From the IMG/VR virus record IMGVR_UViG_3300020048_003650, positions 1 to 64,000 of that record: a stretch of DNA of 64,000 bases; one strand, 5' to 3'. This DNA is from a virus. Under the pieces are notes generated by a model. It did no database searches, was not told the origin of the DNA, and saw only the letters and a program-made list of their open reading frames with translations. Shown piece by piece: positions 1 through 48,000 of the stretch; position 1 is the stretch's first letter, and the number at the start of each line of letters is the position of its first letter. Position numbers and translations under genes: made by a program.

Positions 1-153
1 TTGGGCAACAAGTAACGGCATGGACAACTCGACACAGATAGTCGTTAAAAGTAAACAACCATAAAAGCAAACGAAGATAGCTTTTTGATGGCCGCCTAAA
101 CGGCACCATCTGAGTTTTTCTAGTTGAACTTGGAAACAGAATCAACTAGACCA
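1..153 (+). ncRNA. ssrA: tmRNA, coding piece (5' part outside window; probably two-piece/permuted)
   Basis: 67-99 encodes ANEDSFLMAA-stop, a typical SsrA tag. It is followed by a pseudoknot-like stem (tctagttga/tcaactaga), and no T-arm/acceptor half follows. Confidence 0.8.
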
Positions 154-222
154 ATAATGGTAAACAATTCTATTGACAAAGTAAATTATTAGTGATAAAA
201 TATTATTTTATTAGGAAATGAA

Positions 223-405
223 ATGAAAACAGTACTAAGTAATAATGATGGTTTCAAGTATCTAGTAGAAGTTGTTGAGATCAATCGTCCAGCCAAGCAT
301 ACTAAACTTAGTTTTTCGACTGAGTGGGGCGATGGCAGTGAACAACAAAGTTTTCAAGTTATTTTATCACCAGAACAGCGTCTTTTTCTAAAAGAGTTAT
401 TGTAA
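223..405 (+). CDS. hypothetical protein
   Basis: 60-aa ORF with AGGA RBS and TTGACA upstream. Confidence 0.7.
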   Translation: MKTVLSNNDGFKYLVEVVEINRPAKHTKLSFSTEWGDGSEQQSFQVILSPEQRLFLKELL

Positions 406-441
406 AAGTTTAAGGTCCGGTTGCAACCGGCTTATTTTTAC

Positions 442-531
442 GGAGCGTGGGCCGGATGGTAAGGCAGCGGATTGCTAATCCGTAGAGTGTAGTAATACGC
501 TCACAGGGTTCGACTCCCTGACGCTCCGCCA
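442..531 (+). tRNA. tRNA-Ser(GCT)
   Basis: GGAGCGT/ACGCTCC acceptor, gcgga-TTGCTAA-tccgt anticodon arm, long variable arm, TTCGACT loop, CCA. Confidence 0.95.
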
Positions 532-599
532 TATTAAAGCACATTTCAGCTGGTGAGAGCCTAGTCCAAAGACTTGTTCGGGGTAGTGTGTTTCAATAT
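531..599 (+). ncRNA. closing-helix RNA element 1 (unknown family)
   Basis: atattaaagcacatt pairs with agtgtgtttcaatat (two G-U pairs, one mismatch); starts at the tRNA-Ser terminal A. Confidence 0.55.
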
Positions 600-600
600 T

Positions 601-687
601 GTGTTGTAAAAATACAACACATAGATACTTGACTTTAATTCAGATTCATGGTATAATACACCATACACTGATAGATAGGAAGTAAAA
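601..687 (+). promoter_or_regulatory. repeated early promoter module (palindrome, -35, extended -10, conserved leader)
   Basis: GTGTTGTAAAAATACAACAC, then TTGACT-17nt-TATAAT and ACACCATACACTGA; the module recurs more than 12 times in whole or part. Confidence 0.85.
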
Positions 688-900
688 ATGAAAAAACTTA
701 AATTAATCTTAGTCGACGGTGAAACAGCTACGTTTTACTTAAACGGCAATGTTTCTCTCACAAGTGAAAAATATTTCAGGAACGTTGTCATGTTTGACGG
801 TACTCGGCCTGATGGTTGGATGTTACATGCTGATTACTCGCTTGACGAAATTGAAGAATTGATTGAACAACGACTGGAGAATTCTAATGAACGTGCGTGA
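688..900 (+). CDS. hypothetical protein
   Basis: ORF directly behind the promoter module with RBS. Confidence 0.7.
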   Translation: MKKLKLILVDGETATFYLNGNVSLTSEKYFRNVVMFDGTRPDGWMLHADYSLDEIEELIEQRLENSNERA

Positions 901-1135
901 ACTGATTGAGTTATTACAGGATATGGATGAAGACTTAGAGGTACATTTTTCGTACAACTATGGTGATCATTGGCGTACAGAGGTCGCACCTGTTGTTGAT
1001 ACAGTAGAAGTAGCCAACGTTACGTATTCAGACTATCACGAGATGCATCGGCTTGTTGATGACAATGAGGATGATGAGTGTGAGGACGAGAACGAGGACG
1101 ATGATGGCATTAAACGAGTTGTTGTTTTAAAGTAA
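887..1135 (+). CDS. hypothetical acidic phage protein
   Basis: GGAG RBS before ATG 887; N-terminus MNVRELIELLQ is a common phage type. Confidence 0.75.
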   Translation: MNVRELIELLQDMDEDLEVHFSYNYGDHWRTEVAPVVDTVEVANVTYSDYHEMHRLVDDNEDDECEDENEDDDGIKRVVVLK

Positions 1136-1210
1136 ACGGTCAGAAATCACTTGACAATAAATCAGAGGTATGGTATAATACACCTATACACTGACGAATC
1201 GAGATAAAAT

Positions 1211-1435
1211 ATGAAGGCAAAAATCATCGTTAATCAACGTGAAAACGACCGGTATTTCAAACAAAAATTGCCCACATGGCGCAATGGCTTCTGTGAAATA
1301 GTTCGCAGTGTCACGATTGAACCGGACCCGTATGACGTTTATTTGGACGGTGAGTTTGGATACATCACAGTCTATGGTCGTAAAATTTATGTCACTAGGT
1401 CTGGTATTGAATCTGAATTTGAAATTCGTGGTTAA
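1211..1435 (+). CDS. hypothetical protein
   Basis: behind the promoter module at 1151-1210. Confidence 0.7.
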   Translation: MKAKIIVNQRENDRYFKQKLPTWRNGFCEIVRSVTIEPDPYDVYLDGEFGYITVYGRKIYVTRSGIESEFEIRG

Positions 1436-1539
1436 AAAGATTGACAATAAATCAGAGATATGGTATAAATACACCATACATTGAGAAAACGAGGGAATAT
1501 TATGAAAGAATTTACATACACCTACTTGCGTGATCTAAC

Positions 1540-2232
1540 ATGTACTTAGATAACAGGATTACTACAAAGACTTGGGATCCGCATCGTGTACCCAGCCAGG
1601 CTAACATCAAAGCATTAGCCGAAGTTGCTTACAGGGCTCCCAGCAAGCAAAATTGCTACGAATGGCGCCTAGTCATACTAGGACCGGGCCCAGAATCAAC
1701 AGCAATCAAACAAGACTTATATTGGAATCATACTTGGTGCGACAGCAAGGGTGTGCTTAAGGGTTCAGACCCTGGCCTGAGAAATTACAACGGACAATTT
1801 TTAGCACCTTATTTGTTTACATGGGTAAGTCGATGGAAAGAAATTGATCTTGAAGTTGCTGAATACGAAAAAACAAGAACGGACCCGTACCAACGGATTC
1901 AAAAGTTATCATTGGAAGTGGGAATCTGTGCAGGATCTGTGTTGACCGCTGCTGAGGATATGGGATTATCTACTGGCTTTGCTAACTGCTTTCTAGCCAA
2001 AGAAGTTGCTGGTCTAGTAGGATATCCGGGAGAACGTATTTTAGTTGTACTGGGTGTGGGGTACGCCCAAGATCAAAGCCATTTAGTTGATCGTGGCCCG
2101 CACATCGAAATAACAGATGCCCACGGTAAAGTCATGGGCAGGGATTTAATTAACTATCCAGTTAGCAGGCGTCGGCGTCATTATGCTAGAGCGATTAAAC
2201 CCAATAAGAGTACATTGATCAAGATCGTCTAA
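1540..2232 (+). CDS. nitroreductase-family protein
   Basis: A-x-RAPSKQN motif, LTAAEDMGLSTGF helix, terminal LGVGY. Confidence 0.75.
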   Translation: MYLDNRITTKTWDPHRVPSQANIKALAEVAYRAPSKQNCYEWRLVILGPGPESTAIKQDLYWNHTWCDSKGVLKGSDPGLRNYNGQFLAPYLFTWVSRWKEIDLEVAEYEKTRTDPYQRIQKLSLEVGICAGSVLTAAEDMGLSTGFANCFLAKEVAGLVGYPGERILVVLGVGYAQDQSHLVDRGPHIEITDAHGKVMGRDLINYPVSRRRRHYARAIKPNKSTLIKIV

Positions 2233-2471
2233 CATTGTCATAGCGCCCCCCCCCCTAGAGGCCTATGAATACTTTATTAAACATTGATAATTTAGACCGT
2301 TGTTTACCTAATCCACGACGAACCTAATGCCGAATAAAATTGGCAACATTTACTAGAACTATGTCCTAGGGCATTTTGGAATTGTATAATAACCAGTAGT
2401 GAATAAATCACTTGACAATAAATCGGAGGTGTGGTATAATACACCATACACTGAGAAAACGAGGAAAAACA

Positions 2472-2726
2472 ATGCGTAAACCTAAAATCTCCACCACTGT
2501 GCCAAAATACGGCGATATCATTAAAGCCTATGATTTCCCTGGCACCCTGGAATGTTACATGGTTGGTCGGGTTGTCAATACAGATGATGATTACATTTAC
2601 TGTACCATGATCAAGGAAGTTTTCGGTGGTCAGATGGCATCCGATCCGGATGACAGTTTTCGCACCCCAAAACAAGGTTACAGTTTTGGCGATGACAGTT
2701 TCCAACGAATCGTAGTAATCGCTTGA
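2472..2726 (+). CDS. hypothetical protein (paralog of 53052-53324)
   Basis: ATG after promoter module 2412-2471; GDIIKAYDF...CY.VG.V matches NDVIRSYDF...CF.EG.V. Confidence 0.7.
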   Translation: MRKPKISTTVPKYGDIIKAYDFPGTLECYMVGRVVNTDDDYIYCTMIKEVFGGQMASDPDDSFRTPKQGYSFGDDSFQRIVVIA

Positions 2727-2783
2727 CAATAAATCAGAAGTCGGTTATAATAGAAGTTCAGTAAGTAAAACGCTCTTTAAAAA
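2723..2783 (+). promoter_or_regulatory. sigma70 promoter followed by boxA-like antitermination site
   Basis: TTGACA...TATAAT, then CGCTCTTTAAAAA at 2771-2783 (rrn boxA is TGCTCTTTAACA); no ORF follows. Confidence 0.7.
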
Positions 2784-2787
2784 TTTA

Positions 2788-3025
2788 CGTAATATTTTAG
2801 TACATTAGGTTACTAGATCCGATAGGATACACTGGCATAAACTGTCTCGACGGAGGTGGGTGCAGAGTGTCGTCATGAACGATGGAAACTTCTCCGAGGA
2901 GATGAAACGGTAGTCACGTCGGGCAGTCTAGAGGGTAATGTGGTAAGCGAACAGTCGTTGGACGACAACGTGGTAACCCGCCGAATGGGGGATTCGCAGA
3001 CATCCTAGTGTATTAAAATATTGCG
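2788..3025 (+). ncRNA. closing-helix RNA element 2 (~240 nt, multi-branched)
   Basis: 22-bp helix 2788-2809/3004-3025 with three G-U pairs; several GC-rich internal hairpins. Confidence 0.7.
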
Positions 3026-3221
3026 TTCTTTAATCTAATCAATTGAGCAGTGCGAAATGCACACGGGTTATCTTTACTAACCGCCTAGTGGCGTACCCCT
3101 GCCGAAGGAAATCTGGTCGTGGCAGTGATATTGATCGTGATTATCGAACGCAATACTAGCAGTACGTTGACTCCATTACGCTGGGAAGCGTAGGCCTGCC
3201 GTGAGGCACTCTACCGGAGTC

Positions 3222-3311
3222 ATCTTTATTGAGCGCACTTCAGACAGTAGAATACTTCAGAAGGAGTACAGCCCCTGTTCCAAAGTCCGGGATAGTGTGT
3301 TCAATAAAGAT
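3222..3311 (+). ncRNA. closing-helix RNA element 3
   Basis: atctttattgagcgcact/agtgtgttcaataaagat, 18 bp with two G-U pairs. Confidence 0.6.
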
Positions 3312-3376
3312 AGTGTAACACGGTCGAGGCGCACCCGATTCTTTGTAAAGGTAGCAGACACACCGGAAAGACGGTG

Positions 3377-3474
3377 ACCATATTCGAGTACATTAAAATC
3401 TTAACGGATCAGGCTTGGTAAGCCGAGACCTATACTCAGTAAGTCTAAACAACCATAGTGTACTCGGATATGGT
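3377..3474 (+). ncRNA. closing-helix RNA element 4
   Basis: accatattcgagtacatta/tagtgtactcggatatggt, 19 bp with two G-U pairs. Confidence 0.6.
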
Positions 3475-3475
3475 A

Positions 3476-3631
3476 GTGTTGTTATAAGTGAGTGTTATAA
3501 GGTATCGTGTTAGGACGCTAACACTATACGGGTCAAAGCAGCCGGCGACTGATCCTGATATAACTGCATCGGCTTTGACTGGGAAGCACCCAACGTCTAA
3601 ATTTGCACATAACACTCACTTATGATAATAC
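3476..3631 (+). ncRNA. long-helix RNA element 5 (different arm sequence)
   Basis: 23-bp helix 3476-3498/3609-3631 with three G-U pairs; internal stems gtgttag/ctaacac and gtcaaagc/gctttgac. Confidence 0.6.
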
Positions 3632-3634
3632 AAT

Positions 3635-3710
3635 GGTGACTATAGTGTAGTGGTTCGCACCCGATTCTGTGGAAATCGTAGTCTCGGATCGTAACCGAGT
3701 AGTTACCCCA
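3635..3710 (+). tRNA. tRNA-His(GTG)
   Basis: cgatt-CTGTGGA-aatcg anticodon arm, extended acceptor stem, CCA; atypical T-loop ATCGTAA. Confidence 0.85.
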
Positions 3711-3751
3711 TAAAACTTGACAATAAATCAGAGACATGATACAATGTATTT

Positions 3752-3824
3752 GTCTCTGTAGTGTAAAAGATAACATACGACTCTGACGATGATTGTGATC
3801 TGAGTGCAATTCTCAGCAGAGATT
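3752..3824 (+). pseudogene. degenerate tRNA-like element
   Basis: 7-bp acceptor gtctctg/cagagat and T-arm ctgag-TGCAATT-ctcag are intact; anticodon stem broken, no CCA; own promoter at 3717. Confidence 0.55.
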
Positions 3825-3926
3825 TTAAGAAAATATAGCAAGAAACAACTATTTTATTATGGTTGTTCATCGTCAAGACCTAGTCCAGTGGGTCGTTGCT
3901 GAATATACTGGACAAGAATAAATTTT

Positions 3927-4001
3927 GGTTTCATCGATAATCGGTTATGTCGCCACCCTGTCACGGTGGAGTGGTGGGTTCGATTCCCACTGAAACCGCC
4001 A
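3927..4001 (+). tRNA. tRNA-Asp(GTC)
   Basis: ccacc-CTGTCAC-ggtgg, TTCGATT, CCA. Confidence 0.93.
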
Positions 4002-4009
4002 AAGTTTTT

Positions 4010-4086
4010 GCACCGTTCGTCTAGCGGTCTAGGACAACGCCCTTTCACGGCGTAGATCACGGGTTCAAATCCCGTACGGTGTGCCA
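4010..4086 (+). tRNA. tRNA-Glu(TTC)
   Basis: acgcc-CTTTCAC-ggcgt, TTCAAAT, CCA. Confidence 0.95.
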
Positions 4087-4114
4087 AGTTTCCGTAGTGG
4101 CGAGCCTACTCTAA

Positions 4115-4876
4115 TTATAAATATTTTTTAATTAAATTGTATATAGTATTAGCATTAGCCTTATGAGATTTCCTACCAGGATGAATAAGGTCCCTGCCAA
4201 AATCTATTTTCGGTAAGTATAAAATTCTATCGTCGATATCTGGTTTGTTCATTGAAGTATGAAAAACAGGTATGTCTGGAAATAACATTTCCACTATTTT
4301 CATACTGAAATTTAAATTTACTTTATGTGTTTGAAATTTAGAGAGATTTTCTGTGTAGTCAAAACGATCAGAAAATCCCCAATTATTCCATGGCCCGCTA
4401 TGAAAAATGGTCATGTCATGATAAAAATTAGAAATTCTATTACTAGAAGGCCACGCATTTACTATAGCCTTAGGCGTTATTCCGTTCATCTTCAATGTGA
4501 CCAAATTATATAAGTTGGTATGTTGAGAGCCTCCAGTAACTCCTAAATTAATAACATCGATGCCTGATAGTTCTTGTAATCTAAAAGGAAGAGTATCGTG
4601 GTCTGTAACACTTGTACCAAAAATCAAACTGCATCCTAAAACTATTATACTATTACTCCAATCTAAATATTTAAAATCATTACAACGATATCCTTGACTA
4701 TTTACACTATACAATACAGTATTGTTTTTGTAATACCAATTTTTAGGTTGTGTCTTTAAATTTTCTTGAAAAGATTCTTCTGAATCTAAAAAATCTTTAG
4801 GAAAAAAAGAATAAAAATCAGGATAGGAAGATGGTTTGTTTAGATCGATTAGATTTGCGTTATATTTTATTGTCAT
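4115..4876 (-). CDS. SGNH-hydrolase-like protein
   Basis: VLGCSLIFG, NLGVTGGS and C-terminal DLIHPG motifs. Confidence 0.65.
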   Translation of the reverse strand: MTIKYNANLIDLNKPSSYPDFYSFFPKDFLDSEESFQENLKTQPKNWYYKNNTVLYSVNSQGYRCNDFKYLDWSNSIIVLGCSLIFGTSVTDHDTLPFRLQELSGIDVINLGVTGGSQHTNLYNLVTLKMNGITPKAIVNAWPSSNRISNFYHDMTIFHSGPWNNWGFSDRFDYTENLSKFQTHKVNLNFSMKIVEMLFPDIPVFHTSMNKPDIDDRILYLPKIDFGRDLIHPGRKSHKANANTIYNLIKKYL

Positions 4877-4931
4877 AAAATTACGTATAGTATATAGTTA
4901 CTATATTTATCTTTGTGTTCTTCCAAGTTTC

Positions 4932-5015
4932 GGAGGTGATGTTCCAACGGTGGGACAGGGGATTGTAAATCCCTGGCACTTGTGCAGGTAGGTTCGATCC
5001 CTACCACCTCCACCA
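4932..5015 (+). tRNA. tRNA-Tyr(GTA)
   Basis: gggga-TTGTAAA-tccct, long variable arm, CCA. Confidence 0.93.
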
Positions 5016-5123
5016 AGATCCCGGTGTCCCTAATCGTGAAAATAGGGCGTGTATTGACTCCACGACATAGTCAGAGTGCATACGGTCTACCTCAAAATTC
5101 CAGCGACCACCACGCCTGTAAAA

Positions 5124-5936
5124 TCAAGGTGTTATAACTATGATCTCACCTGTGGTGGGATTGTAATACATGGGTGAAAATCCTGCTGGAATTGAACCTG
5201 CGGTGGGTGCGGCAAAAGTCACACTGGTCACAGCTCGCACAGGTTTCACTGTGAATGTGTTAGCAGTGGTTTGATTCAATGACCCACCAGAGGCATTTAG
5301 AATAATTGAGTTGCTGGCTTGATTGCTTAGACCAGCGTCCGGACCAATGGCTATTGAGTTCAGACCTTGATTGGTCTGACCAGCACTATTACCGATGGCA
5401 ATCGAATTGGCACCTTGACTGTCCAGACCAGCACTTCGGCCAATGGCCACTGAGTTGTTACCTTGTGTTTGTGCACCGGCGAAGGTGCCAATGGCCACCG
5501 TTTGAAGGCCTTGATCTTGAAATCCAGCCTGCCTACCAATTGCTATTGCGTTATTGCCTTGTGTTGTTGAACCGGCGGCACTGCCAATAGCCACCGCTTG
5601 ATTGCCTTGTGTACTATTGCCAGTAGAAACACCAATGGCCACCGCTTGAGTGCCTTGACTGACGCCGGCATTTTGCCCTAGGGCAATAGCGGTTGGACCA
5701 CTGGCGTTATTCTTGTCACCAAGAGTAGCCCATGTTGTATTACCACCGCCGCCACCAACTAGATTTAGATTGCCAAGTGCATTGCCAACATACAGATCGT
5801 ATGTTGCTGTGTCGACGACCAGTTGTCCTGGGCTAGCGTTGCCGTCAAAGCCGGCTAAGTCGGTGTTTACGTGCTTTGGGTCTTCTACGTAAAGACCTGT
5901 GATTCCTACATATGGCGGTGGTGTTGATTGCGACAT
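5124..5936 (-). CDS. virion fibre/adhesin with YadA-head-like 16-aa repeats
   Basis: tandem QG-x2-AVAIG-x2-AG repeats; N-terminal domain shared with 45069-50600; late TAAATA upstream. Confidence 0.7.
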   Translation of the reverse strand: MSQSTPPPYVGITGLYVEDPKHVNTDLAGFDGNASPGQLVVDTATYDLYVGNALGNLNLVGGGGGNTTWATLGDKNNASGPTAIALGQNAGVSQGTQAVAIGVSTGNSTQGNQAVAIGSAAGSTTQGNNAIAIGRQAGFQDQGLQTVAIGTFAGAQTQGNNSVAIGRSAGLDSQGANSIAIGNSAGQTNQGLNSIAIGPDAGLSNQASNSIILNASGGSLNQTTANTFTVKPVRAVTSVTFAAPTAGSIPAGFSPMYYNPTTGEIIVITP

Positions 5937-6117
5937 TTGTTTTTCCTAGTATGAGGTATTTATCTATTTTACAACACTTTTTAGTATTACCCGACAATAT
6001 GCATACACTGAGAAAACGAGAAAAAACAATGAGTAAACCTAAAATTTTCACCAAGTTATCCAACGTACTTGATTTTTATTCAAGTGTCGTGTACAATAGT
6101 TAAATAGTAGTAACAAT

Positions 6118-6201
6118 GCTCAGGTGGTGTAATGGCAGCCACGCCAGTCTTAGGAACTGGTGCCGAAAGGCGTGTCGGTTCGAGTCCGACCCTGAGCACC
6201 A
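6118..6201 (+). tRNA. tRNA-Leu(TAG)
   Basis: ccagt-CTTAGGA-actgg, long variable arm, CCA. Confidence 0.95.
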
Positions 6202-6208
6202 ACAATAT

Positions 6209-6284
6209 GGGTCGTTATCTCAGTTGGTAGAGAGCCTCGCTTACACCGAGGATGTCGGCGGTTCGAACCCGTCACGACCCACCA
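6209..6284 (+). tRNA. tRNA-Val(TAC)
   Basis: cctcg-CTTACAC-cgagg, CCA. Confidence 0.95.
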
Positions 6285-6291
6285 AAATAGT

Positions 6292-6369
6292 GGTGCTGTG
6301 GCCGAGTGGTCCAAGGCAAGTGACTGCAAATCTCTACAATCATCCGTTCGAATCGGATCAGCACCTCCA
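6292..6369 (+). tRNA. tRNA-Cys(GCA)
   Basis: agtga-CTGCAAA-tctct, U discriminator, CCA. Confidence 0.92.
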
Positions 6370-6437
6370 CACATTCACTTGACAATAAATCAAGTTCGTA
6401 GTATAATATACATATATTAAATCATAGGAGTAGTAAA

Positions 6438-6593
6438 ATGAAACGAAAATCGTTCGTTGTGCCAGCAGCGGTACCTCGCAATCCATTTGCAGGACTGGCA
6501 CGTGCTCGTGTAGCGGGTAGTCATCGTAAGTCTAATAAGGCGGTGCGCCGGCAAGACAAGCAAAATCATTATGCCCTCGAAGCTTTAAGGTGA
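6438..6593 (+). CDS. small basic protein (51 aa) overlapping tRNA-Lys
   Basis: own promoter (TTGACA 6379) and AGGAG RBS; MKRKSFVVPAAVPRNPFAGLARARVAGSHRKSNKAVRRQDKQNHYALEALR; below the ORF-track cutoff. Confidence 0.7.
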   Translation: MKRKSFVVPAAVPRNPFAGLARARVAGSHRKSNKAVRRQDKQNHYALEALR

Positions 6594-6647
6594 AGCAACG
6601 GACTTTTAATCCGTAGAACTGGGATCACTGGCCCAGCGGGGGTACCA
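6573..6647 (+). tRNA. tRNA-Lys(TTT), atypical T-loop
   Basis: gccctcg/cgggggt acceptor, acgga-CTTTTAA-tccgt, T-loop ATCACTGG, CCA. Confidence 0.8.
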
Positions 6648-6654
6648 TTGTCAA

Positions 6655-6728
6655 CATATTGAAACGTATTCAAGTAGATCGATCAACGCAGAATTTTACC
6701 GAATTTTGTCAGAGTACGTTTCAATATG
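6655..6728 (+). ncRNA. closing-helix RNA element 6
   Basis: catattgaaacgtattc/gagtacgtttcaatatg, 17 bp; fills the tRNA-Lys to tRNA-Met spacer. Confidence 0.55.
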
Positions 6729-6803
6729 GTGATATAGCTTAGTTGGTAGAGCAGGTCCTTCATACGGACAAGGTCGGGGGTTCAAGTCCCTCTTTCACCA
6801 CCA
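6728..6803 (+). tRNA. tRNA-Met/Ile2(CAT)
   Basis: gtcc-TTCATAC-ggac anticodon arm, TTCAAGT, CCA; lacks initiator features. Confidence 0.88.
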
Positions 6804-6808
6804 ACAAC

Positions 6809-6898
6809 GGAAGCGTGGCAGAGTCCGGTTTATTGCAACAGTCTTGAAAACTGTCGATCCGAAAGGGTCCGTGAGTTCGAATCTCACCGCTTCCTCCA
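6809..6898 (+). tRNA. tRNA-Ser(TGA)
   Basis: acagt-CTTGAAA-actgt, long variable arm, CCA. Confidence 0.95.
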
Positions 6899-6912
6899 CT
6901 TAAAGAGAACCG

Positions 6913-7140
6913 ATGTATAAAGTATATTGGACCAATTCAGACGGTCAAGCATGCAGTCAAGATTATTCAGAGATGATAGAGGCACTTACTGAGACTAATC
7001 ATTTACGTGCCATAGGTAGAGCATATGTTGCTATGTGTAGCGAAAATCCTAATCGAATTGGCACAATGGGCGTAGCCGGAGTAGAAGATGGTAAGTTGCC
7101 AACAGGCGAAAAATATACATGGCAAAAACGTAGAAGTTAA
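6913..7140 (+). CDS. hypothetical protein
   Basis: 75-aa ORF between tRNA genes. Confidence 0.7.
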   Translation: MYKVYWTNSDGQACSQDYSEMIEALTETNHLRAIGRAYVAMCSENPNRIGTMGVAGVEDGKLPTGEKYTWQKRRS

Positions 7141-7147
7141 TTTAATA

Positions 7148-7222
7148 CGGTCCTTCGTTCAACGGATAGGATTCCAGGCTACGAACTTGGAGATGGAGGT
7201 TCGATTCCTTCAGGACCGGCCA
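7148..7222 (+). tRNA. tRNA-Arg(ACG)
   Basis: ccagg-CTACGAA-cttgg, TTCGATT, CCA. Confidence 0.92.
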
Positions 7223-7271
7223 CCAATAAAAATTTTACACAGTGTCGGTAGTTACTAAATAATTTTACAAA

Positions 7272-7345
7272 GCGGGATTAGTTTAATGGTAAAACTACAG
7301 ATTTCCAATCTGTTGTCATCAGTTCGATTCTGATATCCCGCTCCA
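7272..7345 (+). tRNA. tRNA-Gly(TCC)
   Basis: GCGGGAT acceptor, acaga-TTTCCAA-tctgt, CCA. Confidence 0.95.
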
Positions 7346-7367
7346 AAATTCATCTAAAGGAAACACA

Positions 7368-7532
7368 ATGAGTCAACGTAATCAAGTTAGGGACCCCAAC
7401 AAAACAAAAACCGGTAAGACAAGATTGAATGGATTGACAGTCACACAGTTGACGTCTCTCTTAGAAAAAGAGGGAAGGCCAAAGATCAAGGCAAAGATTT
7501 TAAATCGTATCAGAATCGTCCAAAACTGTTGA
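7368..7532 (+). CDS. small basic hypothetical protein (54 aa)
   Basis: AAGGA RBS; MSQRNQVRDPNKTKTGKTRLNGL...; below the track cutoff. Confidence 0.65.
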   Translation: MSQRNQVRDPNKTKTGKTRLNGLTVTQLTSLLEKEGRPKIKAKILNRIRIVQNC

Positions 7533-7564
7533 CAAATAGTTGTAACTACGTTATACTGTTAAAG

Positions 7565-7801
7565 TCAGTGATGAATTCATTACTGATCGAGCGAGTAAAT
7601 GATAGACTAGGGTTGATAACCAATCATTATTAACTTAATGATAAACATACGCTGATAATGTTGATGTGTGTTCCGTATACCACTTGATATTAAATATCAC
7701 TGTTTGTTGCTAAACGGAAATATGCATCTAGTGTCAATTGTTACTGTGTATTTTGAAAGTTGCCATTTGATTTTTCAATTACTTAATCATTTATTCTCTC
7801 G
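7565..7801 (+). ncRNA. candidate structured RNA or long leader
   Basis: promoter 7529-7557; closing helix 7588-7603/7786-7801 (15 of 16 pairs) plus nested hairpins; no ORF. Confidence 0.55.
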
Positions 7802-45068: not shown

Positions 45069-48000
45069 TTATCCCTTGATAATCAATTTAGTTGCCGCAA
45101 CTGCTGTACCGGCAAATACTGATGGAGTTCCTGGAGTCAGATTCAGAGTTCCGTCAGTCTGTACATAGTAGGACTGACCTGGTGCGAGTCCGCTCTGAGC
45201 ATCGTTCACCGAGCTCACAATCTGTACGTTAGCAGTATCACCGTTGCTGTAGTCTCCGACGTTGATGCCAATGTAGTTTTCTGCGGTTAGGTTTGTCCAT
45301 GCCAGTCTTAGAACATAAGCCCTGCCCACGGTGTCTGAAGATGCCAGTACTACGTTGCGTAGAGGACCATCATCAGTGTAGGTTGCTGCTGTGTAGGTTG
45401 AAGAATTACTATTGTACACCACTGGTGTGTTAAACAAAATTGAGGTGCCGGAAATCTGTCCAGCCACATAGGTTCCTCGATTTGAATTACCAACATTTGA
45501 ATAAGCAATTACTACTCGATCCGCGGCAATATTATAGGTGGCCGATGTGTACCGTACCCATGCACTTTGAAATACCGCCGCTGTTCCAAAAGAGATTGTA
45601 AGATCAGATACTGTGGCCACGATAGCGGTTCCAAAATTACTAGACCCTTGATTACTGTATGCGAATACAACTTTGAAAGAATTTGAATCATAACAAGAAG
45701 AAACATTATCACAGAAGCTGGTGGTGTATTGCACTGGGGTTCCAAGAGTCACTGAACCGGTTGAGCCTGATCCTGTTAATCTTCCCACTATAGCCCAGTT
45801 ACGATTGCTGGCTGGAGTGCCGGCGACTCGCAAAAATCCAATCACAAGTCTATCCTGTTGTGTGTGATAACAGGCTGTTAAGGCATTAGTGTCACCAAAG
45901 TCTGCGTTTTCAAATACCACTGATGTACCAAATACAAATTGAGTATCAACAATTTGAGCTGTGCGTACACGTCCAATGACCGAAGCGCCTCGGTTACGCC
46001 AGACAATTGCAACAGTGTCGGCATCACCGGTTGTTTTTGCTACAACACTAATATTATCGGATCCTGCGACAGTGTCAGAAGTATCAAAGAACTCACTATC
46101 ATTCTGAGTTATCGAGTTGTCAGATACTGTAAACAAATTTACAGTTCCGCGGCCACCGCTCAGTCCGTCGCTGCGATAGGCAACTACAATTTTTTGTGGA
46201 CCAGGAACATAAGTTATCGATATGTAGGATGCGCCGAAGTCGGCAAATACCAACGGTGTTCCAAAAGTAATTGTTGGTGGTAATACGGGGCCGCCCGAAG
46301 AAATAGTACCCACTATTATAGTTCCTCTATTCGAGTTGCCGACATCTCTATATGCAATCACCACTCGATTATTCACTGGGTCATAGGTCGCGGCCGAATA
46401 ACTGGTTTCTGAACCGTCATATGTAACAGCAGAACCAATGGCCGTGATGGCGGATCCACTCACTACGCTGACCGTGCCATCTGCGTTTACAATCACCTTG
46501 TCACCGTTTTCCATTAAACCGTAGGCAATATCAAAGGTATTCAGAGTATTGGCTACGGCCTGCAGTGTGCCGCCACCGCCGCCAGTTGCCGGAGTTGTAA
46601 AACTCAGAGTTCCTGAACCGTTTGTAGTTAGTACTTGACCTGTAATTCCACCTGTTATCTTGACGTTACCAATCGGACCCAATGATACGTTAGAACTGCC
46701 AATAAAGTCGATGACGCCATTCGCTGTTAAGTTACCGGTAGTCACGTTGGTGAGTGCAGCGTTTCCGGCGCTGAATCCACCTGTACTGTTGCGTTGAACT
46801 AGTGTATTAGCTGTGTTTGCTGTATCAGGTGCAAATCCTTGTACTGTATTGGCATTAAGATTGGCCACCAAAGTGGTTGATGAAATCTTCAGTGGTGCAG
46901 TACCGGTGGCTACTGGTATGTCTAGCTGACCCAGTGTGTTAAAAGTTACACGGGTGTAGGCAGATGTGTTAGATACGTTGCTGATGTTGCCACTGGTAAA
47001 TTGTAAATTACCGCCGGTATTGGTGAAATTATCAGGACTTTCAAATATTTGCCAGAGATTTCCACCGAGCCAACCTATACCTTCACTCGAACCAGGATCT
47101 GCTATAGTTATATGGTTGACATTGGCAATGCTACGGCCGCCCATGTTAAGAGAACCACCTGAGATGGTCATACCGTTAGTAGCTGTAACAAGAGCAGTAG
47201 AGATATTACCACTTGTAGTGTTACCAGTTACTGCCAATGAACTAAGAGTGCCAACTGATGTAATGTTAGATTGTGCTGCTGTTGTAACTGTGCCTGCCGT
47301 AGTGGCAGCGGCAACAGTACCTGTAACATTTGCACCTGTTAGTGATGTCAGTGCTGCCCCATTACCTGTTACCGTAGTAAATGCACCAGTCGAGCCACTT
47401 ACATTACCAGATGTGATGTTGCCAGTTACCGCTAATGATGTTAAGATGCCAACAGAAGTGATGTTAGGTTGTGTTACGGTTGTTAGTGTTCCACCTAGTC
47501 TAGTAGCGTTTACGTTAGCTACGTTTATATTTCCAGTAACATTTAATGCAGCCAGTGTGCCTACGGATGTGATGTTAGGTTGTGCCGCGGTTGTAACAGT
47601 ACCAGCGGTAGTGGCTGAGGCAACAGTACCAGTAACATTAGCGCCTGTTAGTGATGTCAGTGCTGCGCCATTACCTGTTACAGTAGTAAATGCACCGGTC
47701 GCGCCGCTTACATTACCTGTTGCTATTACTTGACCATTTGCTGTGATGTTGCCAATGGCATTTATTGCTCCGGATTCAATGTTACCACCAGTGGTGATAT
47801 CGGTGCCAACTGAGAGGTAGCCATTAGTTTGTAAAAAGTTAGTGGCTACCACAGCGGTTGTAATAATATTACCGGCACTGAATCCACCTGTACTGCTGCG
47901 CTGAACTAGAGTATTGGCTGTGTTTGCTGTAGCAGGTGCAAATCCTTGTACTGTGTTGGCATTGAGATTGGCAACCAAGGTGTTACTGGCTACCAAGAAC

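Follow-up and report, generated by a model that had tools for sequence, protein, structure and literature searches.

The first 64,000 nucleotides (nt) of the IMG/VR virus record IMGVR_UViG_3300020048_003650 (104,535 bases; CheckV completeness 30%) are referred to here as the window. ARAGORN identifies 13 transfer RNA (tRNA) genes in the window, spanning 442 to 7345 and lying on the + strand throughout. Judged by one protein, its closest relations in culture are Melnitz and HTVC008M, both of them T4-like phages of the Kyanoviridae. Between the tRNA genes lie five elements, named E1 to E5 (Table 1), in which an insert is closed by a long helix with a common core of 15 base pairs (bp) that we call the handle. 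These elements represent a widespread and apparently undescribed phage RNA family of unusual modular build, and they are probably processed out of the tRNA transcripts.

Table 1. Elements closed by the handle and other features of the tRNA region of the window
Feature	Position	Strand	Description
E1	531..599	+	15-bp handle (one A.C, two G.U); 39-nt insert
E2	2787..3026	+	23-bp helix 2787-2809/3004-3026; core arms 2792-2806 / 3007-3021; 200-nt structured insert
E3	3222..3311	+	Diverged handle, 18 bp, two G.U; C-G in place of U.G
E4	3377..3474	+	19-bp helix 3377-3395/3456-3474; core 3380-3394 / 3457-3471, two G.U; 62-nt insert
E5	6651..6732	+	Core 6656-6727, 17 continuous bp, one U.G; 42-nt two-hairpin insert
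Sixth helix	3476..3631	+	RNA of ~150 nt with 23-bp closing stem; ends 3 nt before G-1 (3635) of tRNA-His
Further stem-closed RNA	3019..3155	+	Inverted repeat, 17-nt helix at 88%, other arm sequence; overlaps the 3′ flank of E2
Transfer-messenger RNA (tmRNA), 3′ part	1..163	+	Rfam beta_tmRNA positions 156-331, 34.6 bits; 5′ end missing at contig start
tRNA-Ser(GCU)	442..531	+	ARAGORN; Rfam tRNA 49.3 bits; its A76 is the first base of E1
tRNA-His-like remnant	3312..3380	+	By-eye comparison with tRNA-His 3636-3710; ends in 5-bp hairpin and ACCA
tRNA-His	3636..3710	+	ARAGORN; closes RNA island 2787-3710
tRNA-Lys	6573..6647	+	ARAGORN, Rfam; upstream neighbour of E5
tRNA-Met	6728..6803	+	ARAGORN, Rfam; 5′ end (ribonuclease (RNase) P site) directly adjoins the 3′ arm of E5
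Promoter cassette	2723..2755	+	TTGACAATAAATCAG ... TATAAT; heads RNA island 2787-3710

The 5′ arm of the core (ATATTNNNRYRYATT) has exact matches at 531, 2792, 3380 and 6656, and the 3′ arm (AGTRYRYNNNRATAT) at 585, 3007, 3457 and 6713, all on the + strand. The arms conform to the pattern ATATT-NNN-RYRY-ATT / AGT-RYRY-NNN-RATAT, which is found exactly in 531-599, 2792-3021, 3380-3471 and 6656-6727. Single arms with one mismatch are no commoner than chance; it is the exact, paired and clustered set that stands out. An initial annotation of this DNA had listed five elements with such arms. Four match the pattern exactly, whereas the fifth (E3) is diverged and is a marginal member, scoring 18 bits (expectation value (E) 0.016 with filters off) with the covariance model R1 introduced below; it is 90% identical to the relative locus L283, and its insert is related to that of E1. 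Positions 2788, 3377 and 6655, given previously as element starts, are the ends of outer helices and not the starts of cores. With its flanks included the helix of E5 covers 21 nt at 90% (6651-6671/6712-6732), the outer pairs extending into tRNA-Met.

The variable triplet (NNN) had been described as changing in compensatory fashion. This is true in general, but the aaa/ttc of E1 holds an A.C mismatch. A hand count over the six helices on the + strand gave 13 G.U pairs, one A.C and one A.G, so that departures from complementarity are, as had been noticed, nearly all G.U. Four of the window copies keep the U.G wobble noted at the inner end of the stem, where it forms pair 14, second from the end. 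Compared with shuffled sequences, the minimum free energy (MFE) of folding has z-scores of -5.3 for E3, -6.3 for E4, -5.5 for E5 and -7.1 for the sixth helix; those of the other two are -3.5 for 2785-3028 (E2) and -1.6 for the short 529-601 (E1).

The two-arm pattern with a gap of 30-60 nt was searched in the phage contigs of IMG/VR, and matched at least 119 of them. Among the 188 matches listed, 158 pair at all 15 positions and a further 21 at 14. As a control, 596 Gb of genomes from bacteria and archaea were searched, and the spread was chance-like, only 7 of the 119 matches listed pairing at all seven free positions; the one prokaryotic match that looks genuine is likely to be a phage contig binned with a metagenome-assembled genome of Aquiluna. 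Within 70 non-redundant members of the family 97% of cells pair, and double changes occur in 8 of the 18 pairs. The covariation expected from the initial annotation is thus found: none of 500 shuffles reached the level observed in these 70 members, and sliding the partner columns dropped pairing to 29-50%. A relaxed search revealed compensatory changes also at positions fixed by the pattern (e.g. ATATA/TATAT and ATAGT/ACTAT). The consensus of the core is (RCC)AUAUU-GAA-GCAC-AUU / AGU-GUGY-UUC-AAUAU(GGU). Outward extension of the helix is usually RCC/GGU, with a mode of 3 bp and a maximum of 8, and the variable flanks lengthen the 15-bp core to 18-23 bp in the proposed unit.

No named family accounts for these RNAs, in agreement with the earlier assessment. 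Rfam 15, searched with the window and 15 related loci both at gathering score and with E up to 10, returned only tRNA, tmRNA and one group I intron. Full-text literature searches with the arm sequences gave nothing relevant, and keyword searches found no description. Four near-complete carrier genomes of 320-400 kb encode a T4 gp23-type capsid protein, and that of carrier G003 has its closest isolate matches in jumbo myophages such as Phosso, PA5oct and GAP32. Complete genomes have 1-3 copies of the handle detectable by the model, and other loci have four or more (>6).

The strand preference of the pairing is pronounced. At the free positions the non-Watson-Crick pairs comprise 171 G.U and 29 A.C, 12 of the latter at one recurrent position; the A.C at pair 6 seen in E1 recurs in 12 of 163 relatives. 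The model R1 recovers three window copies at 47-53 bits, the + strand beating the - strand by 15-27 bits (E1, 52.4 vs 25.8; E4, 47.3 vs 25.0; E5, 53.4 vs 38.5). Moreover the elements have one orientation, in that 177 of 178 have no tRNA on the opposite strand within 2 kb. Since the non-Watson-Crick pairs are mainly G.U and the orientation is single, the handle appears to act as RNA and not as duplex DNA.

It could alternatively be proposed that the arms act in the DNA, as terminal inverted repeats or recombination sites of small mobile cassettes (like miniature inverted-repeat transposable elements or the attC sites of integrons) that would have spread through phage tRNA regions, with the RNA fold being incidental. 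The strand-biased wobbles speak against this, and in double-stranded DNA the retained U.G would amount to a mismatch kept by selection; a hairpin of single-stranded DNA would, however, yield the same wobble bias. The elements also come and go. Loci L012 and L074 share two syntenic tRNAs with 93-94% identity, which enclose an element in the former and a 6-nt spacer in the latter, yet this pair of filled and empty sites contains no target-site duplication. Copies vary from 1 to >6 per locus, homing endonuclease genes are frequent nearby, and the same insert can be found with different outer stems in tmRNA and tRNA spacers (see below); against this, the inserts are conserved and structured. Taken with the single orientation, we consider action in the DNA most unlikely.

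The elements are closely associated with tRNA ends. Across 120 loci there are 1333 tRNA genes, present in 105 of them. In 50 of the 178 elements the first base is A76 of a tRNA, and in 17 the last base immediately precedes a tRNA, in agreement with the boundaries at tRNA 3′ CCA and 5′ ends that had been proposed from the window. Within the window itself they are found at 531 and 6727; E5 starts 4-8 nt past the end of tRNA-Lys. The third such boundary, at 3377, is different. The ACCA at 3377-3380 that begins the E4 helix follows the 5-bp hairpin of a remnant that resembles the D and anticodon arms of tRNA-His, and no tRNA is called at 3312-3380 by ARAGORN or Rfam. Similar arrangements are common: CC precedes 110 of the 178 elements, and where no tRNA is called it often stands behind a short hairpin (i.e. 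a minihelix ACCA), as at 3360-3380. Arms without a partner are uncommon: 170 of 188 and 170 of 197 are paired, the few orphan arms mostly have variant partners, and no tRNA was found enclosed by a pair of arms.

The inserts are far more diverse than the handle. Those of the 178 elements fall into 119 clusters, of which 94 are singletons, confirming the shared covarying handle with unrelated inserts that had been described from the window; the recurrent clusters are conserved across contigs. A T-loop motif (GTTCRANYC) occurs in 10 of the 119 insert types, lying 2-11 nt before the 3′ arm in eight. Each T-loop insert examined folds as a cloverleaf, and the handle stands where a tRNA has its acceptor stem, though it is very long and lacks CCA. 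Some inserts, about 10%, are thus predicted tRNA mimics of cloverleaf form. The insert of E2 belongs to a conserved structured family, for which an alignment of 10 sequences contains double changes in 24 of 39 predicted pairs; E2 is 88% identical to L283 over 241 nt, and the insert type has no match in Rfam. We note that inserts of this type have the motifs AGGTTAC, CCGNTAGG, CATGAA and GTAATG, and that the triplet of their handle is always AAA/TTT or TTA/TAA.

The handle is also found within tmRNA genes. All eight tmRNA genes in the related loci that were fetched are circularly permuted, and five readable spacers (L116, L011, L099, L120 and L287), which separate the acceptor piece, ending in CCA, from G1 of the coding piece, have the form ACCA-(N)AAGCAYAYT-insert-AGTRTGYTTY-TGAT-GGGG, corresponding to the inner 10 bp of the handle. 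The stems of these spacers are about 10-14 bp long, and the U.G is often C-G. At least 120 other contigs also carry the spacer pattern and yield 87 unique inserts, and the inter-tRNA and tmRNA-spacer sets together comprise 174 insert clusters. Three clusters are common to the two sets; the spacer insert of L116, for example, shares ~95% identity with elements between tRNAs in L048 and L103.

Transcripts of permuted tmRNA genes are cut by the enzymes of tRNA processing, and mature tmRNA lacks the intervening sequence (PMC11915505). As the handle is present in such spacers, it follows that some members of the family are removed by processing at tRNA ends. The inter-tRNA members are in the same topological position, i.e. 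between a CCA end and a 5′ end of the type generated by RNase P. The two forms differ in the outer 5 bp, which are ACCA/UGAU in the tmRNA spacers and AUAUU/AAUAU in the window, where the elements lie between tRNAs and not inside a tmRNA. In the literature searched the intervening sequence of tmRNA figures just as the segment missing from the mature molecule.

Two further tmRNA genes bear on this comparison. The tmRNA of the window is of the beta type and is truncated at base 1, so that a permutation with a handle-type spacer is not visible there. In phage Melnitz (L241) the intervening sequence occupies 46076-46228, beginning ACCA-TAAACACTT and ending AAGTGTTTA-TGAT-GGGGG, and is possibly a 9-bp relative of the spacer-type handle. 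Its MFE fold favours a local hairpin, and its alignment to the inserts of E1 and E3 is unconvincing. The glutamine riboswitch of Melnitz was considered as a known aptamer carried as an insert, but this was rejected as it is located downstream of the tmRNA and outside the spacer.

From these comparisons of sequence we think it probable that the elements are stem-capped small RNAs excised from the precursors of tRNA operons, with the stem as a handle for processing and stability. They would be transcribed on the tRNA strand within polycistronic precursors, each unit comprising a closing helix with the conserved 15-bp core and an exchangeable structured insert, and filling the spacer from the CCA 3′ end of one tRNA-like RNA to the 5′ end of the next. 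A unit placed in this way would be cut out by the tRNA-maturing enzymes as a by-product. RNase P would free it at the downstream 5′ end, and an endonuclease together with 3′ exonucleases would do so at the upstream CCA. RNase III might cut the stem as well, above all where it is long, and its action would be required for elements that adjoin no tRNA. The long stem would then halt exonucleases, leaving a discrete and stable small RNA. The stem may be a common docking surface too, and any specific function would reside in the inserts, including the tRNA mimics.

Release by tRNA processing is the most economical explanation for the combination of a shared covarying handle, selection on the tRNA strand, boundaries at tRNA ends and homologues within tmRNA genes. 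The modular handle and the release by tRNA processing suggested in the initial annotation are retained in this reading; its proposal that the stem is a handle for an RNase III-like nuclease or for a dedicated binding protein gained no support.

The stems might instead be sites for the RNase III of the host, comparable to the stalks flanking pre-16S/23S rRNA or the early sites of phage T7, such that double-strand cleavage of the stem would split the operon and the inserts could be by-products. The two readings are not exclusive. About two turns of duplex (20 bp or more) is the length expected for RNase III. The stems measure 23 bp in E2 and the sixth helix, 19 bp in E4 and 17+3 bp in E5, forming part of a set of nearly perfect duplexes of 17-23 bp with an outward extension that is commonly 3-8 bp. 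E3 has 18 bp, while the 15 bp of E1 with a mismatch and the ~10-14 bp of the tmRNA-spacer stems are short for the enzyme. RNase III cuts the species 1 RNA of T4 in vitro, and the ~60% of elements without an adjoining tRNA need an endonuclease of their own. The exact abutment to A76 (50 elements) and to +1 of a tRNA (17 elements) would, on the other hand, be unnecessary if the stem were cut. RNase III is not encoded by the four near-complete carrier genomes, and the proposal thus depends on an enzyme supplied by each of a diverse range of hosts. Cleavage by RNase III as the purpose of the stem is possible, if somewhat doubtful.

A number of observations weigh against excision from tRNA precursors as a full account of the family. 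Some 60% of the elements adjoin no recognisable tRNA on either side, so that release there needs another cut. Taken alone, the inserts are only weakly more stable than shuffled sequences (mean z -0.46 for MFE). No family member was established in 11 cultured phages. The strict arm pattern is absent from Melnitz and R1 finds nothing in its first 50 kb; nor does R1 find anything in Atu_ph07, XacN1, FLC9, PX29, HTVC008M, Phosso, Vibrio 2.275.O, PA5oct, GAP32 or CBB. The counts come from pattern-seeded scans over the matches listed, which bias the apparent conservation of the fixed positions. Above all, the conservation of sequence in the stem exceeds what a stability clamp needs: of 141 model hits, 133 retain U.G at pair 14, where a single mutation would be enough to give a Watson-Crick pair.

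The sixth helix provides a measure of this. It had been noted to end 3 nt before tRNA-His and to differ in sequence from the handle, and both points hold. At least 13 phage loci contain homologues of 3476-3631. Their interior is strongly conserved and has no match in Rfam, and the alignment contains double changes in 26 of 41 pairs, with a closing stem that covaries freely. As judged from this alignment, it is a different conserved RNA family and not a member of the handle family. It is indeed the mirror image of the latter, with the insert fixed and the stem free. A neighbouring family thus manages with a freely varying stem, and this contrast is the main argument for selection on the sequence of the handle itself. 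RNAs of the 3476-3631 family often adjoin the large RNA of E2 type.

Such selection would be accounted for if the handle were above all the docking site of a dedicated phage or host protein in a modular ribonucleoprotein system, like Y RNAs with Ro or CRISPR repeats with Cas6, and tRNA processing only delivered the RNAs. Conservation of the core far past the needs of pairing, the recurrent A.C at pair 6 and the use of one handle for >170 insert clusters are all consistent with this, although the fixed positions were imposed by the search pattern and the U.G is often C-G in the tmRNA-spacer form. No candidate protein has emerged. The open reading frames (ORFs) neighbouring the elements in the window encode no RNA-related Pfam domain, and the conserved neighbours in relatives are ordinary T4-like early genes, i.e. 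those for dCMP deaminase, RNase H, homing endonucleases and a PF04308 RNase H-like protein. The TROVE domain of Ro (PF05731) is absent from the record containing the window (G000) and from five large carrier genomes (G001-G005, four of them at least 92% complete), with positive controls, and there is no Rfam match to Y RNA or YrlA in 1-7600 at E up to 10. We consider a dedicated docking protein unlikely.

An extension of the docking idea, to which we likewise assign little probability, is that the handle with its retained U.G docks one protein or machine and that the 170 or more inserts form a phage toolbox of decoys or adaptors, including tRNA mimics that could not be charged. Their targets could be the translation apparatus or tRNA-directed defences of the host, such as anticodon nucleases or enzymes that modify CCA ends. 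If this were true it would be a modular RNA system whose logic resembles that of Y RNA-Ro or CRISPR repeats.

Several other features of the tRNA region may be recorded. The promoter cassette that heads the RNA island has the form TTGACAATAAATCRR ... TATAAT ... ACACTGAGAAAACGAGG and is present in 15 copies in the window against 0.12 expected (at 1151, 1441, 2412, 2723, 3717, 6379, 27860 and eight more), preceding small ORFs and RNA units. We take it to be reminiscent of the mobile early-promoter modules (PeSL) of T4-type phages. Directly after the copy at 3717 there is a tRNA-like sequence at 3752-3824 that is detected by Rfam (37.2 bits) and missed by ARAGORN. Part of the further stem-closed RNA (3043-3130) resembles locus L034. 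A basic ORF of 51 amino acids at 6438-6593 overlaps at its end with tRNA-Lys. The tRNA region also contains two ORFs on the - strand, 4115-4876 and 5124-5936. YadA-head repeats and a weak match to a tail spike were found in one, and the other has no family match and AT-rich surroundings, which suggests an insertion. Just past the stop codon of the nitroreductase ORF (1540-2232) is a run of nine C at 2244-2253 (gcgccccccccctagagg). A search for syntenic relatives by way of this ORF found none, and blastn of 1-7500 against cultured phages gave matches to tRNA only.

The shared handle has practical consequences. With a single bait or probe it should be possible to recover all of these RNAs together with any protein that binds them, and the covariance model could be used for annotation across thousands of phage genomes. 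Should the inserts prove to be regulators or tRNA-like decoys, the family would be relevant to the question of why large phages carry arrays of tRNA genes; inert inserts would instead illustrate how tRNA operons can accommodate and pass on structured spacers.

The closest known RNAs are those of the tRNA clusters of phages T5 and T4, where the likeness lies in architecture and position and not in the handle. In T5 (GenBank AY692264) RNAIII, RNAIV, RNA1, rna2 and RNAI are annotated as misc_RNA with no stated function, and lie among the tRNA genes on the tRNA strand. RNAIII and RNAIV have multi-hairpin inserts closed by a terminal stalk of 9-12 bp, RNA1 and rna2 carry T-arms, and RNAI ends in GCCA. 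RNA1, RNAI and RNAIII are directly upstream of tRNA-His, with RNAIII abutting it, which is the layout of the island 2787-3631 with its tRNA-His. However, the stalks in T5 are shorter and vary between RNAs, and they match the handle neither by sequence nor with R1. We know of no report of a common handle with interchangeable inserts in T5. The species 1 and 2 RNAs of T4 (rnaC and rnaD) are annotated small stable RNAs in the tRNA cluster, adjoining tRNA-Arg; rnaC has a canonical T-arm, and CCA directly follows rnaD. The carriers studied here are likewise of the T4 type, as indicated by their gp23-type capsid protein. Nevertheless rnaC and rnaD are two single genes and not a family of many inserts, and have no conserved closing helix and no R1 match. 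R1 finds nothing in the tRNA regions of either T4 or T5.

Two further systems share elements of the design. The stalks processed by RNase III in precursors of ribosomal RNA and at the early sites of T7 likewise place a long near-perfect helix around a structured RNA within a polycistronic precursor, but we know of none that share one conserved sequence across many unrelated inserts. The Y RNA and YrlA partners of Ro also combine a conserved terminal stem with variable modules, some of them mimicking tRNA. In YrlA the stem replaces the anticodon stem, whereas here the T-arm adjoins the 3′ strand of the handle, placing the handle in the position of the acceptor stem. More generally, phage tRNA islands are known to collect structured RNAs without assigned function, such as GOLLD and ROOL (PMC12286853). 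The present family adds an organising principle, in which one conserved stem is combined with well over a hundred exchangeable inserts, and the handle ties the spacers between tRNAs to the intervening sequence of two-piece tmRNAs.

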